Shown here in pieces: positions 2,211-52,660 of a DNA stretch of 64,000 bases. The stretch is taken from NCBI GenBank assembly GCA_946500615.1, contig CAMMWP010000002.1:29968-93967 (forward strand), in the 5' to 3' direction. The stretch is from an uncultured Clostridium sp. GTDB taxonomy: Bacteria > Bacillota > Clostridia > TANB77 > CAG-508. Numbering within the stretch: the stretch's first letter is position 1; the number at the start of each line of letters is the position of its first letter. The position numbers and the translations under genes were made by a program. Under the pieces are notes generated by a model. That model was not told the origin of the DNA. It saw only the letters and a program-made list of their open reading frames with translations, and searched no databases.

Positions 2211-2417
2211 GATATGGCTAGAAGTATTGCAAGAGTAAGAATATATAAAATTAGAAAATCTGCTTGCAAGGCTATAAACTATATGAAAATAGTCATAGAT
2301 TAAGTGAAAAATCAGCTCTCAAGGCAATAAATGAAAATTGAATAGGACAATAAACTTCCAAGATTTATTGGTTAATATTTAAAAATGTTAATCAGTAAAA
2401 ATTGGAGGTTTTTTTGT

Positions 2418-3404
2418 ATGGAGAAAATTGATTATGAGGTAGATGACTTTATGAATTATTGTGATTATAAAGGATTATCAAAAAAGAGCATGAGAAGTTA
2501 TGAGCAAACATTAAGGTTATTTATACGATATTTAAAAGATGAGTGTAATATCACAAACACAGGAGATATAAAAGAACAAACGATAAAAGAATATATAAGC
2601 AGTATAAAGGAAAGAGGAAAATACACAGTAGTTGCAAATGACAATTCAAAAAAATTTAATAATCCACAAAACAGACAAGATTTTGGAAAAAAAGTCAGTT
2701 TAGCAACAGTTAATAATTACACAAGAAATTTAAGAGTATATTTCAACTATATGTATGATAATAGGCTTATAAAAGTAAACCCAATGAAAAATATAAAAAC
2801 AATAAAAATACCAAGAAAAGTAGTAGGGTATATGGAAAATAAAGACTTTAATAATTTACTAAAATGCTTTGATTTATCTAAATTTCACGAATATAGGGAT
2901 TATGTAATAACACAATTAATATTTGATACTGGTATGAGATTAGGGGAAACACTTTCAATAAGAGATGAAACAGATATAAATTTCACAGATAGAACAATAT
3001 TTTTACCAGCAGAGAATACAAAAGGAAAAAAGGACAGATATGTATTTTTTTCAATAAAAATGGCAACTGAATTAAAAAGGTGGTTACAGTTTAGAGATAG
3101 ATACAAAGATAGTGAATATTGTTTTTGCACAATAAAAGGCACAAAATTAAAAGGTAGTAATTTTGAAAAGAATTTCACAAAATATGGAGAAAGAATTGGA
3201 AAAAGAGAAATACACCCACATCAATTAAGGAATAATTTTGCTAAAAGATTTTTAATGAGCGGTGGGGATATTTATACATTATCAAAAATATTAGGACATA
3301 GTTCAGTTCAAGTTACAGAACAAGCATACCTTGATTTAGATACCGAAGATTTAAGACAAATGTATCAAAAACATTCCCCACTTATGAATTTAAAAAGGAT
3401 ATAA
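2418..3404 (+). CDS. int: Tyrosine-type site-specific integrase
   Basis: RBS ggagg. C-terminal catalytic residues R..HxxR..Y (HPHQLRNNFAKRF...GHSSVQVTEQAYLD). Immediately adjacent to the att region. Confidence 0.85.
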   Translation: MEKIDYEVDDFMNYCDYKGLSKKSMRSYEQTLRLFIRYLKDECNITNTGDIKEQTIKEYISSIKERGKYTVVANDNSKKFNNPQNRQDFGKKVSLATVNNYTRNLRVYFNYMYDNRLIKVNPMKNIKTIKIPRKVVGYMENKDFNNLLKCFDLSKFHEYRDYVITQLIFDTGMRLGETLSIRDETDINFTDRTIFLPAENTKGKKDRYVFFSIKMATELKRWLQFRDRYKDSEYCFCTIKGTKLKGSNFEKNFTKYGERIGKREIHPHQLRNNFAKRFLMSGGDIYTLSKILGHSSVQVTEQAYLDLDTEDLRQMYQKHSPLMNLKRI

Positions 3405-3409
3405 AAAGA

Positions 3410-4123
3410 TTATTCTTTTGGGTATTCTTCTTTTGCCTTTTTGATTTTTTTATTTATCTCATCAAAATATACTTTGTCAACTATTGCATTTGTTGTTACA
3501 ATTTTGTTAGACAACAATGTCCTTTCCATAGTAACTTTTTCTTTTGTAATATATATTTTATCATTTTCTTTAACTTTTGAGGTAAAATATTCATGCAATA
3601 TCCTCAAAATTGGGAATTGCTTTTCATACCAACTTTCTTCCTCTTTATAATATTTTTCAAATGCTTTGCTTTCTGCTTTTTCTAACTCTTTTTGTGTATA
3701 ATTTTTTTTCTCTATAATAACTCGTGGATTTCCATCAAATGGACGATTTTTTTTTCTACTTTCTTGTTCTATTAAAAAATTTATGGTATTTAATAGGCTT
3801 TTTTTATTACTATATTTTAATTCATTTAATGCTTCTATTGCCTCATCAGTTAAACCTGTTAAATTATATATAGTAATATAATCTGGATTTGTACTAGCAA
3901 TATCTGTTTTACCCAATAAATAATTTTCTGAAACATTAAATTCTTTTGCTATCTTTTCTAAATCTTCTAGTGGGATAGGACGTTTTCCACTTTCATACAT
4001 GGCTACCGCTGACCTACTTATATTTAATATGTTATTGGCTAAGCCATCTTGTGTAATACCATTTTTTTCTCGTACCTTTTGAATTCTCTTACCTACTATA
4101 ACATAATTAATTTCTTGTGACAT
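3410..4123 (-). CDS. XRE-family HTH repressor (cI-like), divergent from the replication genes
   Basis: N-terminal HTH_3 (ITQDGLANNILNISRSAVAMYESGKRP). Divergent promoter region with a palindromic operator downstream. Confidence 0.7.
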   Translation of the reverse strand: MSQEINYVIVGKRIQKVREKNGITQDGLANNILNISRSAVAMYESGKRPIPLEDLEKIAKEFNVSENYLLGKTDIASTNPDYITIYNLTGLTDEAIEALNELKYSNKKSLLNTINFLIEQESRKKNRPFDGNPRVIIEKKNYTQKELEKAESKAFEKYYKEEESWYEKQFPILRILHEYFTSKVKENDKIYITKEKVTMERTLLSNKIVTTNAIVDKVYFDEINKKIKKAKEEYPKE

Positions 4124-4150
4124 TTTTTAAATTTTCCTCCTTTTGACACT

Positions 4151-4177
4151 TTTGTGACAAGTATTTTATTTGTCACG
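4151..4177. promoter_or_regulatory. Palindromic operator TTGTGACAA-N9-TTGTCACGA in the divergent promoter region of the island
   Basis: Perfect inverted half-sites tgtgaca/tgtcaca lie between the repressor and the rightward genes. Confidence 0.45.
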
Positions 4178-4385
4178 ATTTTATGATATTATAATCCAAA
4201 TAATCAAAAAAATCAATAAAAACATAATTAAGGGGGTGATTAATATTACAGCAGAAGAAATAAGAAAGGCTAAAAACGAATATTTTAGAACTTGGAGAAA
4301 AAACAACAGAGATAAAGTAAAAAAAGCCCAAGAAAGATACTGGGAGAAAGTAGCAAAAGAAAAACAAAAAAACTCACAAATGTAA
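4170..4385 (+). CDS. Small basic protein (possible Cro/excisionase-like; start uncertain)
   Basis: Lys/Arg-rich 50-70 aa ORF immediately rightward of the operator. Confidence 0.3.
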   Translation: MSRFYDIIIQIIKKINKNIIKGVINITAEEIRKAKNEYFRTWRKNNRDKVKKAQERYWEKVAKEKQKNSQM

Positions 4386-4471
4386 ATATCATTAGGCTAT
4401 GTCAGAAAATCAAACTGATATAAGCCTATTGTTAAGGATATAAAATAAAATAGAAAAGGAGAAATAAAAAA

Positions 4472-4810
4472 ATGAAATATATTGAGTTAAATAATGACAA
4501 AAGTCCAAAATATGGATTTCAAACAACATATAAAACTATGGAAGAATTAGAAAATGCAGGACTACTGCTAAACACAAAAGTTGTACTTGTCGATTTTGAC
4601 AATGACAATATAAATGAAGAAAAAATTATTGATTACATTAAAAAGGAATACCCAACATTAACAGTAAAAACAACAAAAGGTACACATTTTTATTATGCTA
4701 AACCTGATAATGTAAAAATCGGTTGTTATACTGATACGATTACAGTTGGAGGATTTCAAGTTGACTATAAAACAGGAACAAAAGCTTATGCTGTTGTAAA
4801 ACTTAATTGA
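4472..4810 (+). CDS. Primase-polymerase (prim-pol) N-terminal domain protein
   Basis: VLVDFDNDN acidic DxD motif and a YYAKP region typical of bifunctional primase/polymerase. Ends at a TGA that is in frame with the downstream helicase ORF. Confidence 0.5.
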   Translation: MKYIELNNDKSPKYGFQTTYKTMEELENAGLLLNTKVVLVDFDNDNINEEKIIDYIKKEYPTLTVKTTKGTHFYYAKPDNVKIGCYTDTITVGGFQVDYKTGTKAYAVVKLN

Positions 4811-4834
4811 ATAGAAAGGGAAACAAATCAACCG

Positions 4835-6310
4835 TTGTCATTTGATAACTTACCAGAATTACCGCCTATACTATATCCATTAAAAGTATCAAAAGAAAAT
4901 TTAAGTGGAATGGCAGATGGTGACGGAAGAAATGACAAAATGTTTAATCATTTATGTTGGGTGCAACGAATTTATCCTGACATCGACCTAGAAGATATGG
5001 CACAAATAATAAATGAAAAATTATTTGTAGAAAGACTAGAAACAAAAGAGTTAGAAAGTATTATAAAAAGTGTAAAAAGCTATTATGATCCAAACGAATA
5101 TACAGGAGATTTAACAGATATGATAGCATTTGCACAATGGATTATTCCTAAACTAGATATAAAAATTTATAATGGTCAATTATATTTCAAAGATGATAAA
5201 ACATATATTACGGATAATCGTTTATTATTACGAAAAGTAACACATTATTCAAAACTTAAAAGAGTTCAAGATAACGAACTTATACATCAATTACTAAAAT
5301 TTTGGGAGGAAATTGATATTACAACTATGAATTTACCAGTGTATATAAGAAATGGAAGTTTAATTGATGGTGAATATAATTCAAATGATATGCAAATATT
5401 CAGTCCATTTTATTTGGACGTGGAATATAATGAAAATGCTTATGATGAACACGTTGATAAATTTCTAAATGATATTACGTGTAATCGTATAGAATTACGT
5501 CAGACATTAGAAGAAATTTTAGGTCACATATTATTGACCAGTAAATTTCCAGCTCATGTATTCTTCTTATCAGGTGGTGGGAACAATGGCAAAAGCACAT
5601 TCCTAGAAATGATAAATAATTTTGTAGGAAAGGCAGGACAAAATTTAAGTTTAGACGCATTTAATGACGACACCAGTATTGCGGCACTAAATAGTAAATT
5701 ATGTAATTGTGCTGACGAAACTGACGACATAAAAATTGATAAATGCAAACGTTTTAAAAGTTTAGCGAGTGGAAACACAATAACAGTACGACCGATATAT
5801 CAACAACCAGTCAAAATTAGAAATGTTGCAACTCTCATACTATCTGCAAATAAAATGCCAATTTTTAAAGATAAGACAGAAGGTTTTTTCAGACGTCTTA
5901 TGATAATTCCGTTTGATTTTGTAATTACAGAAAAAAACGAAAATTTAGACGAATTATTAAGCACTGATAATGCAAAAAGCTACATATTGAATTTGGCATT
6001 AAACGGTGTGCAACGAATAAAAACAAATGGGTATAAAATGACTAAAAATCAATATGTTGACGCTAAAACTGAGGAATACATAACAGATAATGACCCAATA
6101 GCGGCATTCTTAAAAAATTATCCAAATATTGATGGGGAATTAACTAGTGCTGTATATTATCAGTATGAAACATTTTGCACCACATCAGAAATTGACAGTA
6201 ATTCAATGTCATTATCGCAATTTTCCAGCAAAATGCGTGAATACGGATACAAATCTACACCGACAAAAATTAATAAACAATCGGTCCGTGTTTACAAAAA
6301 AATGCGATAA
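4835..6310 (+). CDS. D5/P4-type primase C-terminal helicase (SF3 NTPase)
   Basis: Walker A FFLSGGGNNGKSTF and Walker B ILSANK motifs. Same reading frame as 4472..4810, separated by a single TGA. The called start is TTG. Confidence 0.65.
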   Translation: MSFDNLPELPPILYPLKVSKENLSGMADGDGRNDKMFNHLCWVQRIYPDIDLEDMAQIINEKLFVERLETKELESIIKSVKSYYDPNEYTGDLTDMIAFAQWIIPKLDIKIYNGQLYFKDDKTYITDNRLLLRKVTHYSKLKRVQDNELIHQLLKFWEEIDITTMNLPVYIRNGSLIDGEYNSNDMQIFSPFYLDVEYNENAYDEHVDKFLNDITCNRIELRQTLEEILGHILLTSKFPAHVFFLSGGGNNGKSTFLEMINNFVGKAGQNLSLDAFNDDTSIAALNSKLCNCADETDDIKIDKCKRFKSLASGNTITVRPIYQQPVKIRNVATLILSANKMPIFKDKTEGFFRRLMIIPFDFVITEKNENLDELLSTDNAKSYILNLALNGVQRIKTNGYKMTKNQYVDAKTEEYITDNDPIAAFLKNYPNIDGELTSAVYYQYETFCTTSEIDSNSMSLSQFSSKMREYGYKSTPTKINKQSVRVYKKMR

Positions 6311-6870
6311 ACTGATACACTAACTGATACACTATGCCATACGTGAAACTGCTGATATTACTGAACTATACACAATTACACTATTACACATATATTTTTT
6401 TAAAATATTTTAATTTTTATTTGTATATTATGAAATATGAAAAAAATTAATAATAAAAAATATATAAAATAATGGTGTAATTGTGTAATAGTGTAACGTA
6501 CTACGCTGACAAGTTGTTGGCGATAGAACAAGTGTATAGGAAAGTGTAATCACTTCAAATTTGTGTATAAAAATGATTTTGAATTAAGTTTTATGTAATA
6601 AAAAAATGGTAACCGAAAAGCACATATTATAGTAATGGCAATATGTTGGTGTGGTTACAAATTTAAAGTTGAATATTTAAACATGGTAACCTAGTCATAT
6701 TTTAAATTTAGGTTTATTTTTTGTGAATTTATAATAAAGTTGGATACCGAAAATGCGAAACATCAGTTATATCAATTTGTTTATGAGGTAACCAAAAGGA
6801 AACCAACTAAAAAAAGTAACCCAAGATAGTTACCGTAAATCATAAAAAAGATAGCAAAGAGCTATCGTAT
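6311..6870. promoter_or_regulatory. Putative replication origin of the island: inverted GTGTAAT iteron clusters flanking an AT-rich unwinding region, plus GGTAACC repeats
   Basis: tacacaattacactattacaca at about 6367 and ggtgtaattgtgtaatagtgtaac at about 6473 in inverted orientation. Between them is an 80-bp stretch that is essentially pure A/T. GGTAACC occurs three times in 6600-6830. Located just 3' of the helicase gene. Confidence 0.5.
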
Positions 6871-6877
6871 ATTATAA

Positions 6878-7117
6878 TTAATCGGCTATATCAATATTAT
6901 CAAATAATTTATCATCGAAAAAATCTTTTAATTTCATATTTAATGCTTCACAAATATATTCTATCATATCAAGTCTAATTATTTTTCTTTTGCCTGATAA
7001 AAATTTAGATAAAGTTGAGCGAGAAATACCAGCCAATGTAGAAAGTTTTGATACATTGAGATTATTTTCATTTATTAAATTAGTAATTCTCATTCTAACT
7101 GCTTCTGATAAATCCAC
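6878..7117 (-). CDS. Small XRE-family HTH regulator
   Basis: 79 aa with LSTLAGISRSTLSKFLSGKR helix-turn-helix. Confidence 0.6.
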   Translation of the reverse strand: MDLSEAVRMRITNLINENNLNVSKLSTLAGISRSTLSKFLSGKRKIIRLDMIEYICEALNMKLKDFFDDKLFDNIDIAD

Positions 7118-7181
7118 TCTAAAATCTCCTTTTATATAGTATTCCTATTAAAGAAAATTTTAACAAAAAACATATTTACAT

Positions 7182-7439
7182 TTGTTGACAAACGCCAACA
7201 TTTTTAGTATTATTTATACAGAAAGGTGCAGTAAAATGGAACAAATAAATAAAGAATTCGATGTGCCATATTACATATTTGAAGAAATAGTTAATTATGT
7301 TGAATTAACAGCACATGGAAAAAATAAAAGTATGAAATGGGAAAATATAAAAATGCTATTAGGATTAGCAAAAGTAAATGATAGATTAACAAGTGAACAA
7401 GTTGAATTTCTTATAAATAAATATAACAGGGAATTATAG
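7182..7439 (+). CDS. Hypothetical protein
   Basis: ORF with a likely start at MEQINKEF (7237). Located downstream of a ttgaca promoter-like box. Confidence 0.35.
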   Translation: MLTNANIFSIIYTERCSKMEQINKEFDVPYYIFEEIVNYVELTAHGKNKSMKWENIKMLLGLAKVNDRLTSEQVEFLINKYNREL

Positions 7440-7472
7440 TTCAATAATTTACAAAAGAAGGGGGATGAATAA

Positions 7473-7559
7473 ATGGACGGAAAAGGAAAATGGTGGAAAG
7501 TGATTTTAGGTATAGGACTTTTAGTTGGTGGATGTATCTTAGTTGCTATAACAGCATAA
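7473..7559 (+). CDS. 28-aa hydrophobic peptide MDGKGKWWKVILGIGLLVGGCILVAITA
   Basis: Strong RBS aagggggatgaataaATG. Single TM segment. Not in the ORF track because it is under 60 aa. Confidence 0.35.
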   Translation: MDGKGKWWKVILGIGLLVGGCILVAITA

Positions 7560-7598
7560 ACATTTTAAAAATTATAGAGAGGAAAGAGGAATATTTAT

Positions 7599-8060
7599 AT
7601 GAATATGAAATTAAAAAATCAAACAGGAATAAGTTTAATGAAAGTAATAATTATCGTAGCAGTAATAATTATAGGAATAGTAATCATTAGTGCGATTACA
7701 AGTAAACCGGGTTACGAGTTAAGTGTAGAAAAAAGCGAACCAGTTGCATATACAAATTTAAGATATTCTATTGCACAGGCAGCTGCAAGTAGTGGTGGTG
7801 CTAGTACATTAAAAAGCGAATATATTGATACACTTGGAAAATTAGTAAAAAGTGCAGATAGTAATAATCAATGGTTTTCAAGTAATAGTGGTGTGTTTTA
7901 TGGTGGAACAGCAGATACTTCTGATTATCAATATACTTGGATTTCAAACGGAACTTATTGTGCAACATTTTGTATAAAACAAGAGGGCAATACATATTAT
8001 TTATGTGATTTTAAATTTTCAACTGATACTGTAAAAGGTTATACACTTTTTGTTGAGTAA
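7599..8060 (+). CDS. Hypothetical secreted or membrane-anchored protein with a pilin-like N-terminus
   Basis: N-terminus MKLKNQTGISLMKVIIIVAVIIIGIVI: short basic leader, a Gly, then a roughly 20-residue hydrophobic stretch. No E at +5, so it is not a canonical prepilin. Confidence 0.4.
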   Translation: MNMKLKNQTGISLMKVIIIVAVIIIGIVIISAITSKPGYELSVEKSEPVAYTNLRYSIAQAAASSGGASTLKSEYIDTLGKLVKSADSNNQWFSSNSGVFYGGTADTSDYQYTWISNGTYCATFCIKQEGNTYYLCDFKFSTDTVKGYTLFVE

Positions 8061-8353
8061 TATGGATAATATAACGATAAAATAATAAAAAGTAGAAGAT
8101 ATTATCAATTTATCTTCTATTTTTGTAAATTTATATAGAAAAATAATCATAAAATAAAAATAAATAGCGGTAATTAGTATTATACAGGTGTTTTTAGGGA
8201 TTTTATATTTTAGTAAAGGTAATTTCATAGGTAATATATTAAAAGTGTTTAAAATTAAAATTACGACCACGTTTTTTATAAAAGTTCATAAAAAAGAAAA
8301 ATGTAAATATGTTTTATGAATTTTTTCTGTGTTTAGCAATATCAAACTGTTTT

Positions 8354-8542
8354 TTAATATATGGTCTGCCGACTAACAGGAATAATATTGCGAATATACC
8401 AGTTTTCTGCATTATCACTCATACGAGCCATAATTGTTTTATTCCAGTGTTTTATTTGTTCCTCTGACATTGGAACTTTTGAACAAGAGGATAATTGCAC
8501 AATATTAATAATATCTATATCATCTAAATCTGGTTTGTTCAT
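8354..8542 (-). CDS. Hypothetical protein (62 aa)
   Basis: Good RBS aaaggtggtg upstream on the minus strand. Confidence 0.35.
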   Translation of the reverse strand: MNKPDLDDIDIINIVQLSSCSKVPMSEEQIKHWNKTIMARMSDNAENWYIRNIIPVSRQTIY

Positions 8543-8700
8543 TTTTTATGCACCACCTTTTTCTATTTGATAAATTACATTATAAGATAAAATTAAAAAA
8601 AAATAAACAATGTTCTTACATTTTACAAATAACTACATTAAGAAAATAATAAAAATCTCTTAAAATAAAATGTGAATATAAAGTGAAAGGGGTGGATTTT

Positions 8701-8904
8701 ATGGAACAAGATTTTTATAGTGCAATATTAAAAATACTAGAAAAGGATATAAAAATTAATACAAATGAAAATTTAATAAACACATTATTTGAAAAAAGGT
8801 CAGAAAAATTTCATGTAGCAGTTACTAAAAATGACAAATATAAAGTTCAAAAAGAAAATTTAAAAAAAGCAAATGAAAAAATATATAGAATTACAAATGT
8901 ATAA
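8701..8904 (+). CDS. Hypothetical protein
   Basis: RBS aaaggggtgg, then ATG at 8701 (MEQDFYSAIL...). Confidence 0.35.
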   Translation: MEQDFYSAILKILEKDIKINTNENLINTLFEKRSEKFHVAVTKNDKYKVQKENLKKANEKIYRITNV

Positions 8905-9186
8905 ATATGGTGTTTATGACGGTATAAAATTAATACTTGACAGCATAAACAAATAATAAACTGTGATATTAAAAAGCAAGGGTGCAATATACCTTGTTTT
9001 AATTTTGTTTATTAAATTATGAATGTAATACAATGACAATTTAATTACATTTGATAAAACACACATAAAGCCAGTAATATCAACCGTTAAATACATTTTT
9101 GCTCGAAATATATACAGACAAATGTAATACAATTCATTTAGATTTTACATTAAATGTCTTATAATGAATAAAAAAGAGGTGGTTTT

Positions 9187-9747
9187 ATGAATACAGTTCA
9201 GCCAATAAGGGATAGGGAAAAATTAGAAGATTTAAAAGAGGAATTAAAGAAAAACGGAACAAGAGATTATATGTTATTTTATACAGGTATCAATTCGGGT
9301 ATGAGAATATCAGACATTGTAAAATTAACAAAAGAAGATGTAAGAAATAGTGATAATAGTATGAAACAACATATTACAGTAATTGAAAAGAAAACAGGAA
9401 AACAAAAACGATTTCCACTATGTAACGGTTTATTAGTAGAAATGGAAAAATACACAAAAAATATGAGAGCAGGGGAATATTTATTTAAAAGTAGAAAAGG
9501 AGAAAACAAACCAATAACAACAGTACAAGCATATAGGATAATAAGTGAAGCGGCAAAAAGAATAAGTTTAGAAGAAATAGGAACACATACTATGAGAAAA
9601 ACATTTGGGTATTGGCATTATCAACAATATAAAGATGTTGCAATATTACAAGAAATATTTAACCACTCATCACCATCAGTTACATTAAGATACATTGGAA
9701 TAAATCAAGATAACATTGATAAGTCATATATGAATTTTAGTTTATAA
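9187..9747 (+). CDS. Minimal tyrosine recombinase (186 aa, catalytic domain only)
   Basis: RBS aagaggtgg. Catalytic residues R (SGMRISD), K (KKTGKQKRF), HxxR (HTMRKTF), W/H (YWHY), Y (LRYIG). A degenerate 3' copy is at 11140-11285. Confidence 0.7.
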   Translation: MNTVQPIRDREKLEDLKEELKKNGTRDYMLFYTGINSGMRISDIVKLTKEDVRNSDNSMKQHITVIEKKTGKQKRFPLCNGLLVEMEKYTKNMRAGEYLFKSRKGENKPITTVQAYRIISEAAKRISLEEIGTHTMRKTFGYWHYQQYKDVAILQEIFNHSSPSVTLRYIGINQDNIDKSYMNFSL

Positions 9748-9863
9748 AAAATGTAAAATTTTACAATGTTCGCTTGATTTTTGCAAACAAATGTTGTATA
9801 GTATTAAACATAGGAAATGAGAATAAGCAGATGTGGTTTGCCTCCAATAAGGAGGTGAGGCAT

Positions 9864-9986
9864 ATGGTAGAAATACAAACATTAATTGCAACAATATACA
9901 TATTATATTATTCATTAATTGGCGTAACTATCATAGCTCTTACTTCGATAATAGCACTTGTAATACTACTTTGTAAGAGCAAATAA
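9864..9986 (+). CDS. 41-aa hydrophobic peptide with a C-terminal KSK; candidate type I toxin
   Basis: Promoter-like ttgcaa..tatagtat at 9782-9815. Strong SD aaggaggtg. Peptide is MVEIQTLIATIYILYYSLIGVTIIALTSIIALVILLCKSK. Followed by a rho-independent terminator. Confidence 0.45.
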   Translation: MVEIQTLIATIYILYYSLIGVTIIALTSIIALVILLCKSK

Positions 9987-9994
9987 ACCAAAAA

Positions 9995-10036
9995 AACAGA
10001 CACATCTGTAAACTCGCCAAAGTTTGATGTGTCTAA
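9995..10036 (+). terminator. Rho-independent terminator hairpin (agacacatc ... gatgtgtct)
   Basis: 9-bp stem plus a downstream A/T run. Confidence 0.5.
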
Positions 10037-10771
10037 AACATTATTCCGAGGTTGACCACGTTTGTGGTTTCTCCATTTCCTATAATTATTATACACAGAT
10101 TAAATGGATTTGTCAAATATAATTTTTTAATAAAATTGCATAAAAAGTGATATTTGCAACAGAAAAAAATAAAAATAAGTGTATAATAATAATTAAGTAT
10201 TAAAATGTATTAATTAAATAAGAGAGGAGGAATGACGAAGGAACTTAGATTCAAGTTAAATAAGACCTTTCAATAAATAAAAATTTATAGAAAGGAGGAA
10301 TTTTAAGGAAGTATCCTTTAATATGCTTAATAAGAATATTAATATTAATAATAATTTTTTTATTTGGTGAAGATACAATTCCAATCATAAAAGATTGGTT
10401 GCTTGGAGAATTGATTAGTTATTTCATAAAATCATTTTATACTAGTAAAATTAAAACTGAGCCAAAAAATGAAATAATTGTAAATATAAATCAAAATAAT
10501 TATTATACAGTAATAAAAAAACAATAATCCAAATTCCTAAACTTGTCTAAAACCTTTAAATTATTCCTATTTGTGTTAATAAAAGTAAGAATAAGTGATT
10601 AAGTTCATTTATTCTTTTTAGTTTCTATTGAGATTTCACGAATAATCTCTTAAAATCATACCAATAAACATTTTTGGATAAAACCAATAAATATTTATTG
10701 GAATGTGAAAATTTATTGCCCTCGTAACCTTTGACAAAATCTAAAAAGTTTGGTTTATAAAAATCCGCCAT

Positions 10772-10920
10772 GCCATAGAAGTAGCATGGGGAAGAGGACA
10801 AACGGATGTTGTAGAAAGTATATTTGGATACACCGTATCAGCAGCAAAAGGTAAGCCAACTAATAGTGAATTTATAGCAATGATAGCTGATAAATTAAGG
10901 CTAGAATTAAAATCAGCATA
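10772..10920 (+). pseudogene. Displaced second copy of the spo0A 3' end (last 50 codons, about 85% nt identity, mostly synonymous differences); att-associated
   Basis: Encodes [50 protein letters not shown]. spo0A positions 2058-2210 encode [50 protein letters not shown]. Confidence 0.8.
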
Positions 10921-11700
10921 ATGAATAATCTAGTATGTTTGAAGGTATTGATATAATAAGAATACGGAAATTTATAAAATATGATTTTATAGCTATAAAC
11001 TATATGAAAATAGTCATAAAATAAGTGAAAAATCAGAGGTTAAGGCTATAAATGAAATATTCATAGGACAATAAACTTCTAAAATTTATTGGTTAATATT
11101 AAAAAACGTTAATCAGTAAGTTTTGGAATTTTTTTTCATATGTGTAAAACATGTGGATATTGGCATTATCAACAATATAAAGATGTTGAAGAAATAGTTA
11201 ATCACTCATCACCATCAGTTACATTAAGATACATTGGAATAAATCAGGATAACATAGATAAATCATATATGAATTTTAGTTTATAAAAATGTAAAATTTT
11301 ACAATGTTCGCTTGATTTTTGCAAACAAATGTTATATAGTATTAAACATAGGAAATGAGAATAAGCGGAGTGTGTTGCCACCTTTTACTCTTTGATGTGT
11401 ACATATTTATTCCACAGCTTTTAGCTTGTGAGATTGACTGGCTGGTGGTGGTGCTATGGTAGAAACAGCTTATTAGTAATCATCAAACTACTTTTCCTTG
11501 GATTAGTAGGTGTAACTATCATAAATTTTGCCTTAGTATTCATCATCTTGTATTTACTACATAGGCAATAAAAATAACCATTCTGCTTTGACGGGTCGAA
11601 TGGTTATTTTATTCTTCTCGGCAACCACAAAGTGGTTTCTTCATTTCTTATAATTATTATACACAGATTAAATGGATTTGTCAAATAATAATTTTCCCAT
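10921..11700. mobile_element. Remnant of a second, related element E2: a left end homologous to 2211-2400, fused to the 3' fragment of the small recombinase and a disrupted toxin-peptide region
   Basis: 10975-11110 matches 2265-2400. 11140-11285 encodes ...WHYQQYKDVEEIVNHSSPSVTLRYIGINQDNIDKSYMNFSL*, matching the 3' end of 9187..9747. 11630-11690 matches 10060-10120. Confidence 0.6.
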
Positions 11701-19401: not shown

Positions 19402-19510
19402 ACATTGCACACAATTTTACATGCGTAAAATTAGCGCAGAACAAATTTACGGAAAGCCTAAGCAAAATTTAAAGTGTAGTTGTATTTAATGGCTTTCCGA
19501 TTTGTTCTAT
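19402..19510. repeat. Mosaic intergenic repeat family R1, copy a (modules: palindrome aattttacNNNNgtaaaatt; hairpin gaacaaatttacggaaagcc/ggctttccgatttgttc)
   Basis: The same modules recur at 23259, 25284, 28895 and 34484. Confidence 0.6.
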
Positions 19511-21694: not shown

Positions 21695-21927
21695 TAGTTC
21701 CCCTTCAAGCTTTCCAAGCTGAGAGCCATCAGTATATTTTAAGCTTCTCGGCTACCCTCCAATTGACGTTTAAGAAATTCTAATATCTAAATCGTAACAA
21801 TACCCGGAAACAGGACCCTTTATGACTTATATATAAGAATTTCTAAAACGATTCCGGTCGCATTCGAAACTTAAAAATATACTGATGGCTCTCAGCTTGG
21901 AAAGCTTGAAGGGGAACTAAAAAAACG
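21695..21927. repeat. Foldback element R2 copy 1: perfect 46-bp inverted arms around a 140-bp core that is HindIII-site delimited
   Basis: Left arm tagttccccttcaagctttccaagctgagagccatcagtatatttt is the exact reverse complement of the right arm. The core is shared with 27726-27850 in the opposite orientation. Confidence 0.7.
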
Positions 21928-23258: not shown

Positions 23259-23425
23259 CTATGATAATATAAGTAAGAGAACAAATCGGAAAGTCTTAAC
23301 ATTTGTGCAATCTTTAACTTTTCGCTTTGGCTTTCTGTAAATTTGTTCAGCGCCAATTTTACGTATGTAAAATTGTGTGCAATCGTTAGCGCGAAGCGAG
23401 ATTTGTCCTACAATAGGAAAGGGTT
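23259..23425. repeat. Mosaic repeat R1 copy b
   Basis: gaacaaatcggaaagtc...ggctttctgtaaatttgttc hairpin, aattttacgtatgtaaaatt palindrome, tacaataggaaag..ctttcctattgta palindrome. Confidence 0.65.
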
Positions 23426-23514
23426 ACTTTCCTATTGTATAAAAAAGGGAAAAAGTTAGAAAAGAAATAAAATTTTAACTGAATGGATACCAAAAAGAAG
23501 GGAATGAGATAAAA

Positions 23515-25283: not shown

Positions 25284-25445
25284 AAGAACAAATCGGAAAG
25301 CCTTAACATTTGTGCAATCTTTAACATTTCTCTTTGGCTTTCCGTAAATTTGTTCTGTGCCAATTTTACGGAAGTAAAATTGTGTACATCTGTTGCGCGA
25401 AGCGTTTCTTATACAATAGGAAAGGGGAACTTTCCTATTGTACAA
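25284..25445. repeat. Mosaic repeat R1 copy c. The track ORFs 25281-25699 inside it are spurious.
   Basis: Near-identical modules to copy b in the same orientation. Confidence 0.65.
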
Positions 25446-25523
25446 GAAATGCGAAACGAATAAAAATAGTGGTTAAAAGGGGAAACAAACAAGATGTATG
25501 CATTGAGAAAGGGATGTGAAAGA

Positions 25524-26944: not shown

Positions 26945-27655
26945 GTGTCTATGAAATTATTTAGAAAACTTTTATTGATTATGTTTATATTCATAGTAAT
27001 AGCAGTTATTGTTTTAGGAATAATTGGTTTTACAACTTACTCTAAAGCCTTAGATGAAAAACCATTAATAACAAGAACGGATGAAATAACAAAAGATGAA
27101 CATTATGTACCATTTAGTGAATTATCTGAAGATTATATACATGCAGTTGTTTCTGTAGAAGACAGAAGATATTATGAACATGGAGCAGTTGATTTTATTG
27201 GAATCGCTCGTGCCATTTGGACAAATATACGAACAGGAAAATTACAAGAAGGTGGTAGCACCATAACACAACAAGTAGCAAAAAATATTGTATTTACACA
27301 AGAAGAAACCATTACAAGAAAAATGGGAGAAATATTTGCTGCCATTGATTTAGAAAATAAATTTTCTAAAGATGAAATTTTTGCTCTATATGTAAACAGT
27401 GCTTACTTTGGCGATGGATATTATGGTATTTATGATGCTAGTATGGGGTATTACAAGAAAGAACCAAAAGATTTAACATTAGATGAAGCGTCTATGCTGG
27501 CAGGTGTACCAAATGCACCTTCTGTATATGCACCAACTGTCAATCCGAAGTTAGCAAACGAAAGACAATCACATGTATTAGATACAATGGTTGAAAATGG
27601 ATATATTTCACAAGGACAAGCTGATGAGATTATCAATAGCAAAAAAACAGAATAG
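26945..27655 (+). CDS. Monofunctional peptidoglycan glycosyltransferase (GT51 transglycosylase domain)
   Basis: N-terminal TM. EDRRYYEHGAVD, GGSTITQQVAKN motifs. Confidence 0.8.
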   Translation: MSMKLFRKLLLIMFIFIVIAVIVLGIIGFTTYSKALDEKPLITRTDEITKDEHYVPFSELSEDYIHAVVSVEDRRYYEHGAVDFIGIARAIWTNIRTGKLQEGGSTITQQVAKNIVFTQEETITRKMGEIFAAIDLENKFSKDEIFALYVNSAYFGDGYYGIYDASMGYYKKEPKDLTLDEASMLAGVPNAPSVYAPTVNPKLANERQSHVLDTMVENGYISQGQADEIINSKKTE

Positions 27656-27668
27656 AAATTAACTAAAA

Positions 27669-27907
27669 CAAGGTTACCGTTCAAATCTTCCAAAGTGAGG
27701 GGGGATTCATATAGTAGATTTTTTAAGCTTCGAATGCGACCGGAATCGTTTTAGAAATTCTTATATATAAGTCGTAAAGGGTCCTGTTTCCGGGTATTGT
27801 TACGATTTATATATCAGAATTTCTTAAACGGCAATTGGAGGGTAGCCGAGAAGCTTAAAAAATCTACTATATGAATCCCCCCTCACTTTGGAAGATTTGA
27901 ACGGTAA
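27669..27907. repeat. Foldback element R2 copy 2: perfect 57-bp inverted arms. The core is inverted relative to copy 1.
   Basis: ttaccgttcaaatcttccaaagtgaggggggattcatatagtagattttttaagctt is the exact reverse complement of 27851-27907. The core 27726-27850 is the reverse complement of 21741-21866, with a few substitutions. Confidence 0.7.
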
Positions 27908-28038
27908 CAAACATAGGAGGAATCGTGCAAAAAACGTGTTAAAAAAGTTGCATAAAATAAAATACTGTGATAAAATCCGTAAGTAGAAGCATATAATTAT
28001 ATGATTCTATATAGTAATACCTAAAAGAGGTGAAGAAA

Positions 28039-28894: not shown

Positions 28895-29050
28895 AAATTG
28901 GCGAAGAAACAGAAAAAACTATAATCGATAGCCCTTTGAGATTTTCTCCTTACAGTCGAAAACTCAAATCAAGCGAAAACAAATTTACAGAAAGGCAAAG
29001 AGAAAATATCAAATTAGTATCATTATAAGGTTTTCCGATTTGTTTAAAAC
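28895..29050. repeat. Degenerate R1 mosaic repeat, copy d
   Basis: gaaaacaaatttacagaaaggc ... aaggttttccgatttgttt. Confidence 0.4.
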
Positions 29051-30321: not shown

Positions 30322-30399
30322 AAGAACTTCTAATATCTAACTACCCTCAGATTGAAAGGTAATCTACGGACAAAAACAAAACAAAAGTTCGAAAAAGTA

Positions 30400-34448: not shown

Positions 34449-34481
34449 AAAAAGATGCCAATACAGGCATCTTCTTTTTAT
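34449..34481 (+). terminator. Rho-independent terminator
   Basis: aagatgcc...ggcatctt plus ttttt. Confidence 0.55.
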
Positions 34482-34483
34482 TG

Positions 34484-34745
34484 AATAGGAAAAATCGAGT
34501 TTTTCCTATTCAAGAACATCGCTTCGCTCTAACAATTGCACACAAATTTTACTTACGTAAAATTTGGCGCCGAACAATGACGCGGGCTTTAAAATGTTAT
34601 AAACAGAGAAAATGTTCAAAAAAGCCCGCTATTGTTCTACAATAGGAAAGTTCCCCTTTCCTATTGTATAAAAAACGCTTCGCATAACGGATGTACACAA
34701 TTTTACATACGTAAAATTGGCACAGAACAAATTTACGCAACGCTT
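34484..34745. repeat. Mosaic repeat R1 copy e (largest: two aattttacNNNNgtaaaatt modules, two ataggaaa palindromes, one GC hairpin)
   Basis: See the R1 family. Directly abuts the prophage junction. Confidence 0.65.
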
Positions 34746-51263: not shown

Positions 51264-51979
51264 ATTCCCCTGTTTTTCCCCTCATTATAAGGTATTAATT
51301 AGTATTTATATATAGTATAATAACAATAGTAAGATTGTCGCAAGACAAAATATAGAAACTTTAAATAAGTTTATCCCCTTTTATTTTTGAAATATTTTTT
51401 TACAAAAGTTTCATAGAGATTGTACTTTAACAGTCTCTTGCCAATTACATTTTAACCATGTGAATAAACACAATATCATGTGTCATGGAATTATCCGACA
51501 AGTAGTCAGCTAAAAGGATACTTTTAGAAGGTTGCTTTTTAATTATAGTAATATAGTTAAAGAAGATGTAAAAATCAATACTGGATAATGTGCAAATGTT
51601 ATCGCTTAATAAAATACTAGAGTTGTCGTAGCCGTAATAGACGGACTAGTAGTCAATAAGCCTATAACTCATATCTAGCAAATATGAAGCAATGTAGGTA
51701 ATGCTAAATAAGGCTATTTCTCGTGAATACTCTGAAAAGAGGATATAAGACATAACTAGGTTAAAGTAGCTCAATTCGAGATAAAAAAGCAATGTTAGGA
51801 TTGGAAATTCAAAAACATTCTGAATGATGGGTGAAATTTATGGGCAGTCAATCCCATACGAGCTTGAAAGGGGCAAGAAGTTATAAGGTCGCTACTTATA
51901 ACTCAGACTTGTTCTCTCGGTGATTGAATAATTAAGAAGATAATAATTTGTAAGGTGAAAGTCTAAATGTATTTTATAT

Positions 51980-52056
51980 TGCGGAATGGAGAAGAGGTCA
52001 ATCTCGCTAGTCTCATAAGCTAGAGATCGTAAGTTCGAATCTTACTTCTGCAACCA
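51980..52056 (+). tRNA. tRNA-Met (anticodon CAT; could alternatively be tRNA-Ile2 lysidine type), phage-encoded
   Basis: Manual fold: acceptor tgcggaa/ttctgca, D-stem gaga/tctc, anticodon stem ctagt/gctag with loop ctCATaa, T-stem gtaag/cttac with loop TTCGAAT, discriminator A, CCA encoded. Confidence 0.7.
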
Positions 52057-52585: not shown

Positions 52586-52660
52586 TTGGGAATAGTTAAA
52601 TTGGTATAACAACAGGCTTTGACCTTGTCATTCTTAGTTCGAGTCTAAGTTCCCAAGCCA
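52586..52660 (+). tRNA. tRNA-Gln (anticodon TTG), phage-encoded
   Basis: Manual fold: acceptor ttgggaa/ttcccaa, D-stem gtta/taac, anticodon stem acagg/cttgt with loop ctTTGac, T-stem cttag/ctaag with loop TTCGAGT, CCA encoded. Confidence 0.7.

Follow-up and report, generated by a model that had tools for sequence, protein, structure and literature searches.

A 64,000-nucleotide stretch of the genome of an uncultured Clostridium sp. (contig CAMMWP010000002.1, positions 29,968 to 93,967; hereafter the window) contains two copies of a repeated element, copy 1 and copy 2, in which two long and perfectly complementary arms enclose an asymmetric core. The family to which both copies belong is best described as a previously uncatalogued one in low-G+C uncultured gut Clostridia, distinguished by the upkeep of its arms, the inversion of its core and the likeness of that core to RNA. 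In the interpretation that we regard as probable, its members are miniature non-autonomous DNA transposons (MITEs, miniature transposable elements with inverted repeats) whose arms are homogenised at the DNA level and whose core flips in place, this core being most likely a structured-RNA cargo.

Anatomy, distribution and ends of the element

Copy 1 (21695..21919, 225 bp) lies on the minus strand, taken as the strand where the core folds best and is RNA-like. Its left arm, a terminal inverted repeat (21695..21740), is complementary at 46/46 positions to the right arm (21874..21919), and 133 nt of core are placed between them (21741..21873, minus strand). Read on the plus strand, this core comprises the conserved loop blocks TTCTCGGCTACCC (21745-21757) and GGTCGCATTCGAA (21856-21868), an inner stem formed by residues 21767-21797 and 21820-21850, and an apical 20-mer (21800-21819). 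Copy 2 (27673..27908, 236 bp, plus strand) is bounded by the family termini GTTACCGTTCAAAT...ATTTGAACGGTAAC; its left arm, likewise a terminal inverted repeat (27673..27731), pairs at 59/59 positions with the right arm (27850..27908) around a core of 118 nt (27732..27849, plus strand) that comprises an inner stem (27747-27777 and 27800-27830), the apical hairpin (within 27778-27797) and two loop blocks, TTCGAATGCGACC on the 5' side (27729-27741) and GGGTAGCCGAGAA on the 3' side (27840-27852). The outer end of the copy 1 arm is a degenerate form (GTTCC...) of the family terminus. The core profile matches copy 1 at 21876-21737 on the minus strand and copy 2 at 27720-27861 on the plus strand.

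An earlier, sequence-only reading of the window had described these paired hairpins and their perfect arms, and both descriptions hold, although its limits for copy 2 (27669-27907, with 57/57 pairs) were slightly off. The arms of the two copies are identical at 33/46 positions of the shorter arm (72%), in agreement with the roughly 70% it had estimated. The common core of about 125 bp that it reported is also real, with 96% identity over 144 nt, but the two cores stand in opposite orientation (21734-21877 matches the reverse complement of 27720-27863), a point that had been overlooked. With arms that are perfect palindromes, a copy takes its orientation from its core only. The internal inverted repeats noted in both cores were recovered as 31-nt arms that are 84-90% complementary, and the scrambled core fragment that had been placed near 30325-30360 turned out to be real and tiny. 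In this small rearranged core relic (30328..30355, plus strand) two pieces of the core have exchanged places, with the 13-mer TTCTAATATCTAA adjoining ACTACCCTCAGATTGA; residues 30328-30340 are an exact core 13-mer and the adjoining residues 30340-30355 a core 16-mer with 3 mismatches, for which 3 matches were found across the window against 0.31 expected. The core profile search of the window did not detect the relic.

The predicted RNA folds of the whole elements are very stable, with -114.5 kcal/mol for copy 1 and -136 kcal/mol for copy 2 (z-scores of -19.6 and -21.5 with respect to shuffled sequence), and the core of copy 2 folds at -48.2 kcal/mol on the plus strand and at -38.2 kcal/mol on the other. 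No open reading frame (ORF) of at least 60 amino acids lies wholly within either copy, and the left arm of copy 2 shares its first 21 nt with a minus-strand ORF (27451-27693) that is regarded as spurious. The window itself has a G+C content of 27.9% and carries spo0A, and two genome bins of uncultured Bacillota/Eubacteriales show synteny with it at about 80-85% identity. The sequence of copy 1 is also present in L077, a contig from an independent sample of the window strain (collected loci are designated here by L numbers).

The window copies are not alone, as the sequence-only reading had allowed they might be. A scan of a genome collection with the 20-mer at the apex of the core returned 76 loci. 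They belong to 16 species-level genomes from gut-type metagenomes, whose labels read uncultured Clostridia, Eubacteriales, Bacillota or Bacilli, and a single genome bin contributes 29 of the 76. A second scan with two other conserved blocks, which left the apex free, added 15 diverged members in metagenomes, so that further copies total about 90; counts over copies, here and below, include related sequences and are not phylogenetically independent. No match to the element was found in the viral contigs, phage records and plasmids searched, nor did Rfam give any at the element when gathering thresholds were applied. With permissive settings (E up to 10) solely the plant miRNA models MIR7533 and MIR8007 appeared, at 57-66 bits against thresholds of 195-230, and these matches reflect hairpin shape alone, without sequence relationship. 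A search of the element for tRNA-like structures with ARAGORN returned nothing.

Many contigs of one genome bin, CAWVJB01 (e.g. L001, L011, L037, L048, L054, L062 and L073), as well as L077, end inside the core. Such ends are expected, because the repeat is longer than the assembly k-mer, and they imply that copy numbers in bins of this kind are underestimated. An assembly artefact was considered as the source of the family and rejected, since 16 independent bins, the products of several studies and several assemblers, contain the element, and a further sample of the window strain does so too.

Across the family, arms of about 25-70 bp, whose inner sequence varies from copy to copy, surround an asymmetric core of about 125 nt. 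The outermost positions are conserved as GTTAC(W)GTT(C/T)AGAC...GTAAC, which can also be written as GTTACWGTTCAGAC...GTAAC, and both ends are recognisable in 25 copies. Inspection of the sequence outside these ends revealed a target-site duplication of 8 bp, perfect (8/8) in 10 of the 25 copies and matching at 7/8 positions in 5 more, whereas control flank pairs taken from different copies gave 8/8 in none and 7/8 in 0.5%. In copy 2 of the window this duplication has decayed to 5/8. The mobility that had been proposed for the element is thus borne out by its target duplications. All 77 scored copies are intergenic. At one locus (L009) the site is occupied by 273 nt, and in L044 the corresponding empty site measures 45 nt, the flanks being otherwise collinear. 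In another intergenic region the copy in L049 differs from those in L042 and L057 both in its arms and in its target duplication, and these are therefore independent insertions.

The ends are also found around other interiors. A sibling element at about L057:6599-6852 shares its termini (GTTACAGTTTAGAC...) with the family, a copy of which lies 20 nt away, and has arms of about 44 nt around an interior of about 215 nt that is unrelated to the family core. Palindromes made of arms alone, with the family terminus, no core and a loop of 10-18 nt, occur at L059:4230-4304, L009 at about 7740-7830 and L018 at about 2620-2710, and are presumably deletion derivatives. Since the ends enclose other interiors or none, the ends are the mobile part and the core is cargo, and the termini, as judged from these relatives, serve more than one cargo. 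An insertion of the core into pre-existing palindromes was considered and set aside, as the arms are homologous between copies, the termini are common to them and the target duplications lie outside the arms.

The neighbourhood of the copies was examined through 370 ORFs within 2.5 kb of them in the 16 genomes. After clustering and inspection no recurrent transposase-like or recombinase-like family was seen among these ORFs; the largest clusters contain about one member per genome (one of them two from a single genome), and several read as orthologous housekeeping genes. The copies are scattered, each by itself, between genes that have no relation to one another, among them genes for secretion, MutS2-like, LeuRS-like, DapF and AspRS proteins. 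An integron attC site would be expected beside an integrase with a cassette array, and a retron msr-msd region beside a reverse transcriptase; no integrase-like or reverse-transcriptase-like gene was seen to be recurrent among the neighbours in a by-eye reading of the clusters, with Pfam domains assigned only around the window copies.

Upkeep of the arms and inversion of the core

In the strict outer stems of 73 distinct copies, counted after exclusion of mis-registered anchors and asymmetric inner ends, 2530 columns are Watson-Crick pairs, 72 are mismatches and 12 contain gaps, and the best stem is perfect in 38 of the 73. The mismatches are distributed as 15 G.T, 24 A.C and 33 of other types, without an excess of wobbles on either strand. 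Many copies have orthologous positions that span up to seven species, and this allows the arms to be traced in place. When copies are grouped by their common flanks, the stem columns comprise 322 that are invariant, 26 with unmirrored differences only, 3 with both kinds of change and 90 that differ between copies yet match within every copy. The last count includes end columns reflecting stem length only, and columns of three sets in which the arms diverge to such a degree that these are probably independent insertions. Clear internal cases between true orthologues are given by L053 and L067, which differ by three mirrored substitutions and by an indel of 1 nt that each copy has in its two arms alike, by L027 and L050 (five mirrored changes) and by L071 with respect to its orthologues (three mirrored changes). 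Half-converted intermediate states are seen in L036, L072 and L060.

Mirrored indels are impossible by independent mutation, and selection on an RNA would leave wobble intermediates; a DNA process therefore copies one arm onto the other. In this process, a change in one arm would be copied to the other by recombination, by gene conversion or by template switching during replication. Template switching is described as a mechanism that creates and maintains perfect hairpin stems and gives rise to apparent compensatory changes (PMC8794818, PMC5453318). Recombination or gene conversion on the one hand and template switching on the other would produce perfect arms equally well. An aberrant copy at L019:6849-7080 has arms of 103 nt that are 98% complementary, with 26 nt between them, and its GGGTAGCCGAGAA side has been overwritten by the complement of the TTCGAATGCGACC side, which we read as the arm-copying process having overshot into the core.

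The orientation of the core relative to both flanks is opposite in three orthologous sets (the L018 set, the L028 set and L053/L067), an inversion in place that the sequence-only reading had missed. Examples of flipped pairs are L053/L067, L051/L070 and L031/L044, with a flank identity of 92%, 96% and 93%, respectively, and the swap can also be seen directly in an alignment of copies. The arms of the flipped partners belong to the same lineage, and the event is for this reason an inversion and not a re-insertion. The set of L042, L049 and L057 also gives flipped pairs (L049/L057 and, by one flank, L042/L057), of which the L049/L057 difference in orientation is an independent insertion, with other arms and another duplication. 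Where the flanks are at least 98% identical, each of the five pairs has its two cores in the same orientation, and a contig from a second sample of the window strain, 99.99% identical and ending inside the core of copy 2, shows the same orientation as the window; the flips observed are therefore evolutionary events. In the flipped pairs the length of the arms stays below the assembly k-mer that the contig names indicate (k141, MEGAHIT-style) or otherwise below 55, which we take to be the typical maximum k of SPAdes, and this too speaks against an assembly artefact. An exchange between inverted arms inverts the enclosed core and converts the arms, so that one process accounts for both features, and we regard the flipping as a passive consequence of the length of the inverted repeats, without a programmed switch.

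Substitution patterns of the core and competing explanations

The consensus structure derived from 74 distinct cores consists of 34 pairs in five helices. Standard pairs occupy 97.7% of the cells, with respect to 83.1% in shuffled and 34-53% in slid controls; 19 pairs have changed on both sides (14.4 in shuffled controls), and the covariation score is 0.407 (0.130 shuffled). Wobbles are strongly asymmetric, with 160 G.U against 15 A.C, or 85 against 15 when the apical helix is left out, and the more stable strand is the same in all 74 cores, with a mean advantage of 10.9 kcal/mol. In the window this RNA-like strand is the plus strand for copy 2 and the minus strand for copy 1. The apical hairpin has the form CCUG-NNNN-CGGG with a fixed U.G pair, which becomes U-A in the diverged member L091. 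Two internal loops, GAAU opposite CGA and GA opposite GUA, are near-invariant within TTCGAATGYGACC and GGGTAGCCGAGAA, also among the copies found through the apex alone, and could form tandem sheared G.A pairs. Hairpin and other ribozymes, the K-turn and the T-loop were considered from the loop sequences and put aside, as none has Rfam support and the loops appear to misfit the canonical K-turn.

From these substitution patterns the core most likely behaves as a strand-specific structured RNA. In this scenario the transposon would carry the core RNA as cargo, with its long covarying helix, its conserved apical hairpin and its two purine-rich internal loops, and a core selected as the single-stranded structure of one strand would resist the symmetrising effect of arm conversion. 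The sequence-only reading had offered selection on an RNA or copying of arms in DNA as alternatives; the copying in DNA holds for the arms and the RNA for the core. More tentatively, and with less confidence than we place in the reading as a whole, the core may be a new class of structured RNA spread as transposon cargo within one clade of gut Clostridia, each of its dozens of copies being, through the flipping between the arms, a mobile and orientation-switchable RNA gene or cis-regulatory cassette.

Several observations weigh against the picture of a mobile element with homogenised arms and an RNA cargo. As regards the core, a strand-specific hairpin of single-stranded DNA would give the same asymmetry of G.T mismatches as the RNA that the substitution patterns suggest. 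The apical 20-mer and the two loop blocks served as search patterns, so that their near-invariance is in part a matter of ascertainment. No conserved promoter or terminator was found in the element (a promoter-like match in the arms of copy 1 only is not conserved), and between co-directional flanking genes the RNA-like strand is antisense in 22 cases and sense in 9, counts that include non-independent orthologues, so that an antisense bias is unproven. As regards mobility, the empty site in L044 is not base-precise, the intergenic DNA having diverged, and no autonomous partner with matching termini was found in about 0.6 Mb of collected loci or in the window. The 26 unmirrored columns show that conversion of the arms is not fast, and the calls of core orientation rest on consensus short-read assemblies.

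The first of these points opens the way to a different account of the core, in which it acts as a signal in the DNA itself, be it a platform to which the transposase or a host protein binds or a strand-specific single-stranded DNA hairpin that forms in replication or transposition, while the MITE nature of the family, the conversion of its arms and its flipping are all retained. We hold this account to be rather unlikely. G.T is the least destabilising mismatch in DNA hairpins too, so the asymmetry fits both; moreover, the core travels together with the transposon ends, neither promoter nor terminator was found in it, and it has no preference of orientation with respect to genes. Nevertheless, the sibling in L057 has the same ends around a different interior and thus ends that do not need the core, while 8-bp duplications and inverted repeats point to double-strand transposition, for which no strand-specific hairpin is required. 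Transposition of this kind, without the need of such a hairpin, is that of DDE transposons. The core also flips relative to its flanks, and its strand is in consequence untied from the direction of replication, and it is RNA that typically combines covarying helices with fixed wobbles and purine-rich internal loops. The same flipping could be thought to come from a programmed inverton, in which a site-specific recombinase would flip the core frequently for phase variation, with the arms as recombination sites. For this speak the position of the core between perfect inverted repeats, the presence of both orientations at orthologous loci, the conservation across copies of the inner arm ends (TATATTTTTAAG) and of the outer ends, and the many contigs of one bin that terminate inside the element. 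It is nonetheless improbable, given that no recombinase gene is recurrent beside the copies, that from copy to copy the arms vary widely in both sequence and length, that the 5/5 near-identical pairs and the second sample of the window strain keep one orientation, that the core has no conserved promoter, that a contig will tend to break at any repeat that exceeds the assembly k-mer, and that the 8-bp duplications show the arms to be transposon ends.

Two further explanations concern the arms. If the whole hairpin of about 230 nt, arms included, were one structured RNA, its arms would be kept by compensatory substitutions; its very stable predicted folds, and arms that diverge between copies and pair within each, are what such an RNA would show. 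This explanation is largely refuted and we give it very little credence, since the arms have no tolerance for wobbles (15 G.T, 24 A.C and 33 other mismatches for 2530 pairs) in contrast with the 160 G.U and 15 A.C of the core, since an indel is mirrored in both arms, since arms can overwrite the asymmetric core, and since arms end in transposon termini with target duplications and have relatives made of arms only or with other cargo. The other explanation, which the sequence-only reading had offered as one possibility, is that of a foldback element whose perfect arms are regenerated at each transposition by hairpin-primed or rolling-hairpin synthesis. The many copies with perfect arms and the mobility of the element agree with it, but mirrored changes and flips arise in place at orthologous loci of different species, without transposition, and half-converted intermediates exist; the 8-bp direct duplications fit a staggered-cut, double-strand integration, and no replication-initiator, nickase or other element-associated gene is recurrent near the copies. 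We regard it as scarcely credible.

With the family read as MITEs with DNA-homogenised arms and a probable RNA cargo, the element separates an outer stem copied in DNA from an inner stem selected as a single strand, two situations that are usually confounded in 'compensatory' changes, and lends itself naturally to testing covariation methods as well as the template-switch model of hairpin evolution. Further, it shows that the long inverted repeats of bacterial transposons can invert their cargo in place over evolutionary time, which can mimic invertons in metagenome scans. Should the core be transcribed, a mobile element would be carrying an uncatalogued multicopy RNA in gut Clostridia that are abundant and uncultured; otherwise the family would be an ordinary, tidy new set of MITEs.

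Other features of the window and comparison with known systems

Elsewhere in the window, about 8.7 kb (2215-10921) are absent from the syntenic loci L052 and L069 and are inserted at the 3' end of spo0A (1344-2210), of which about 150 bp are duplicated at 10763-10921. Besides a tyrosine integrase (2385-3404) and a second integrase-like ORF (9187-9747), this region codes for an HTH repressor-like protein (3410-4123), a DUF5906/VapE-like protein (4835-6310) and a Prim-Pol fragment, and from this content it looks like an integrated satellite or island. A match to the terminal motif of the element at position 3083 lies inside the integrase ORF (2385-3404) and was discarded as chance. A full-length ROOL RNA (Rfam RF03087, 317 bits) is located at 51432-51984, adjoining a tRNA (51980-52053), and a second tRNA follows at 52586-52657. 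Another intergenic repeat family, unrelated to the element, contains a hairpin of the form ACAATAGGAAAG...CTTTCCTATTGT and has no Rfam match; its repeats measure about 100-170 bp at 76-91% identity, and there are at least six window copies, among them 23278-23446, 25285-25449, 19404-19508, 28978-29044 and 34475-34743.

Among known bacterial repeats, ERIC/IRU and REP/REPIN, the latter with RAYT transposases, were reportedly described by De Gregorio et al. 2005 and by Bertels and Rainey 2011. They are intergenic palindromic repeats that form hairpins in transcripts, and in REPINs the hairpin is the replicative unit, with halves that are unusually alike. REP/REPIN sequences have no target duplication, and their Y1 (RAYT) transposase is a single-copy gene flanked by REPs. 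The present family differs from them in its 8-bp duplications, and no transposase-like gene is recurrent among its clustered and inspected neighbours, no search specific for RAYT/Y1 having been made. ERIC copies are highly similar over their full length, whereas the arms of this family are strongly diverged.

Invertons, reportedly surveyed by Jiang et al. 2019, are phase-variable invertible promoters (fimS, and others in Bacteroides and Clostridioides difficile). They possess short repeats, a dedicated recombinase and an enclosed promoter. The element resembles them as a short segment between inverted repeats that is found in both orientations at the same locus. In contrast, its repeats are variable transposon ends, neither a recombinase among its neighbours nor a conserved promoter among its copies was found, and its flips are seen only between species and never between near-identical genomes.

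The 8-bp target duplication is shared with the IS6/IS26 family, whose terminal inverted repeat (TIR) has the consensus GGTTCTGTTGCAAA and which has clostridial members (PMC6807381). The terminus of the element, GTTACTGTTCAGAC, has GTT-CTGTT in common with this consensus, an agreement of about 9-10 of 14 positions with one indel, and, unlike the IS6/IS26 repeat, it does not start with GG. No IS6-type transposase was found in the collected sequence (about 0.6 Mb of loci), and a kinship with IS6/IS26, suggested by these sequence likenesses, is only a lead and not a result. Eukaryotic foldback elements and miRNA precursors derived from MITEs (PMC10004981) are alike in having long, near-perfect hairpins that come from transposon inverted repeats, but they have no sequence relationship to this family, whose bacterial host has no miRNA pathway and whose conserved part is the interior and not the stem.

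With regard to the arms, the closest likeness is to template-switch hairpins (PMC8794818; PMC5453318) and to gene conversion between inverted repeats, where one event copies an arm and leaves perfect stems with mirrored changes and indels, with no need of selection on single base pairs. The template-switch studies concern rRNA and human and ape genomes (PMC8794818; PMC5453318), whereas here the hairpins are the terminal repeats of a bacterial transposon and arm copying is coupled to inversion of the core. As a whole, the element resembles bacterial MITEs such as Correia/NEMIS of Neisseria, RUP of Streptococcus pneumoniae, MITEAba12 (PMC6382973) and those of Coxiella (PMC5896051), which are also small, non-coding, multicopy and intergenic, have terminal inverted repeats, a target duplication of fixed length and a presumed mobilisation in trans, and would form a hairpin if transcribed. 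It differs from these in that the searches showed it similar in sequence to nothing annotated, that its arms are unusually long (to about 70 bp), variable between copies and homogenised within each, and that its interior is far better conserved than its arms, shows RNA-like covariation and flips in place.

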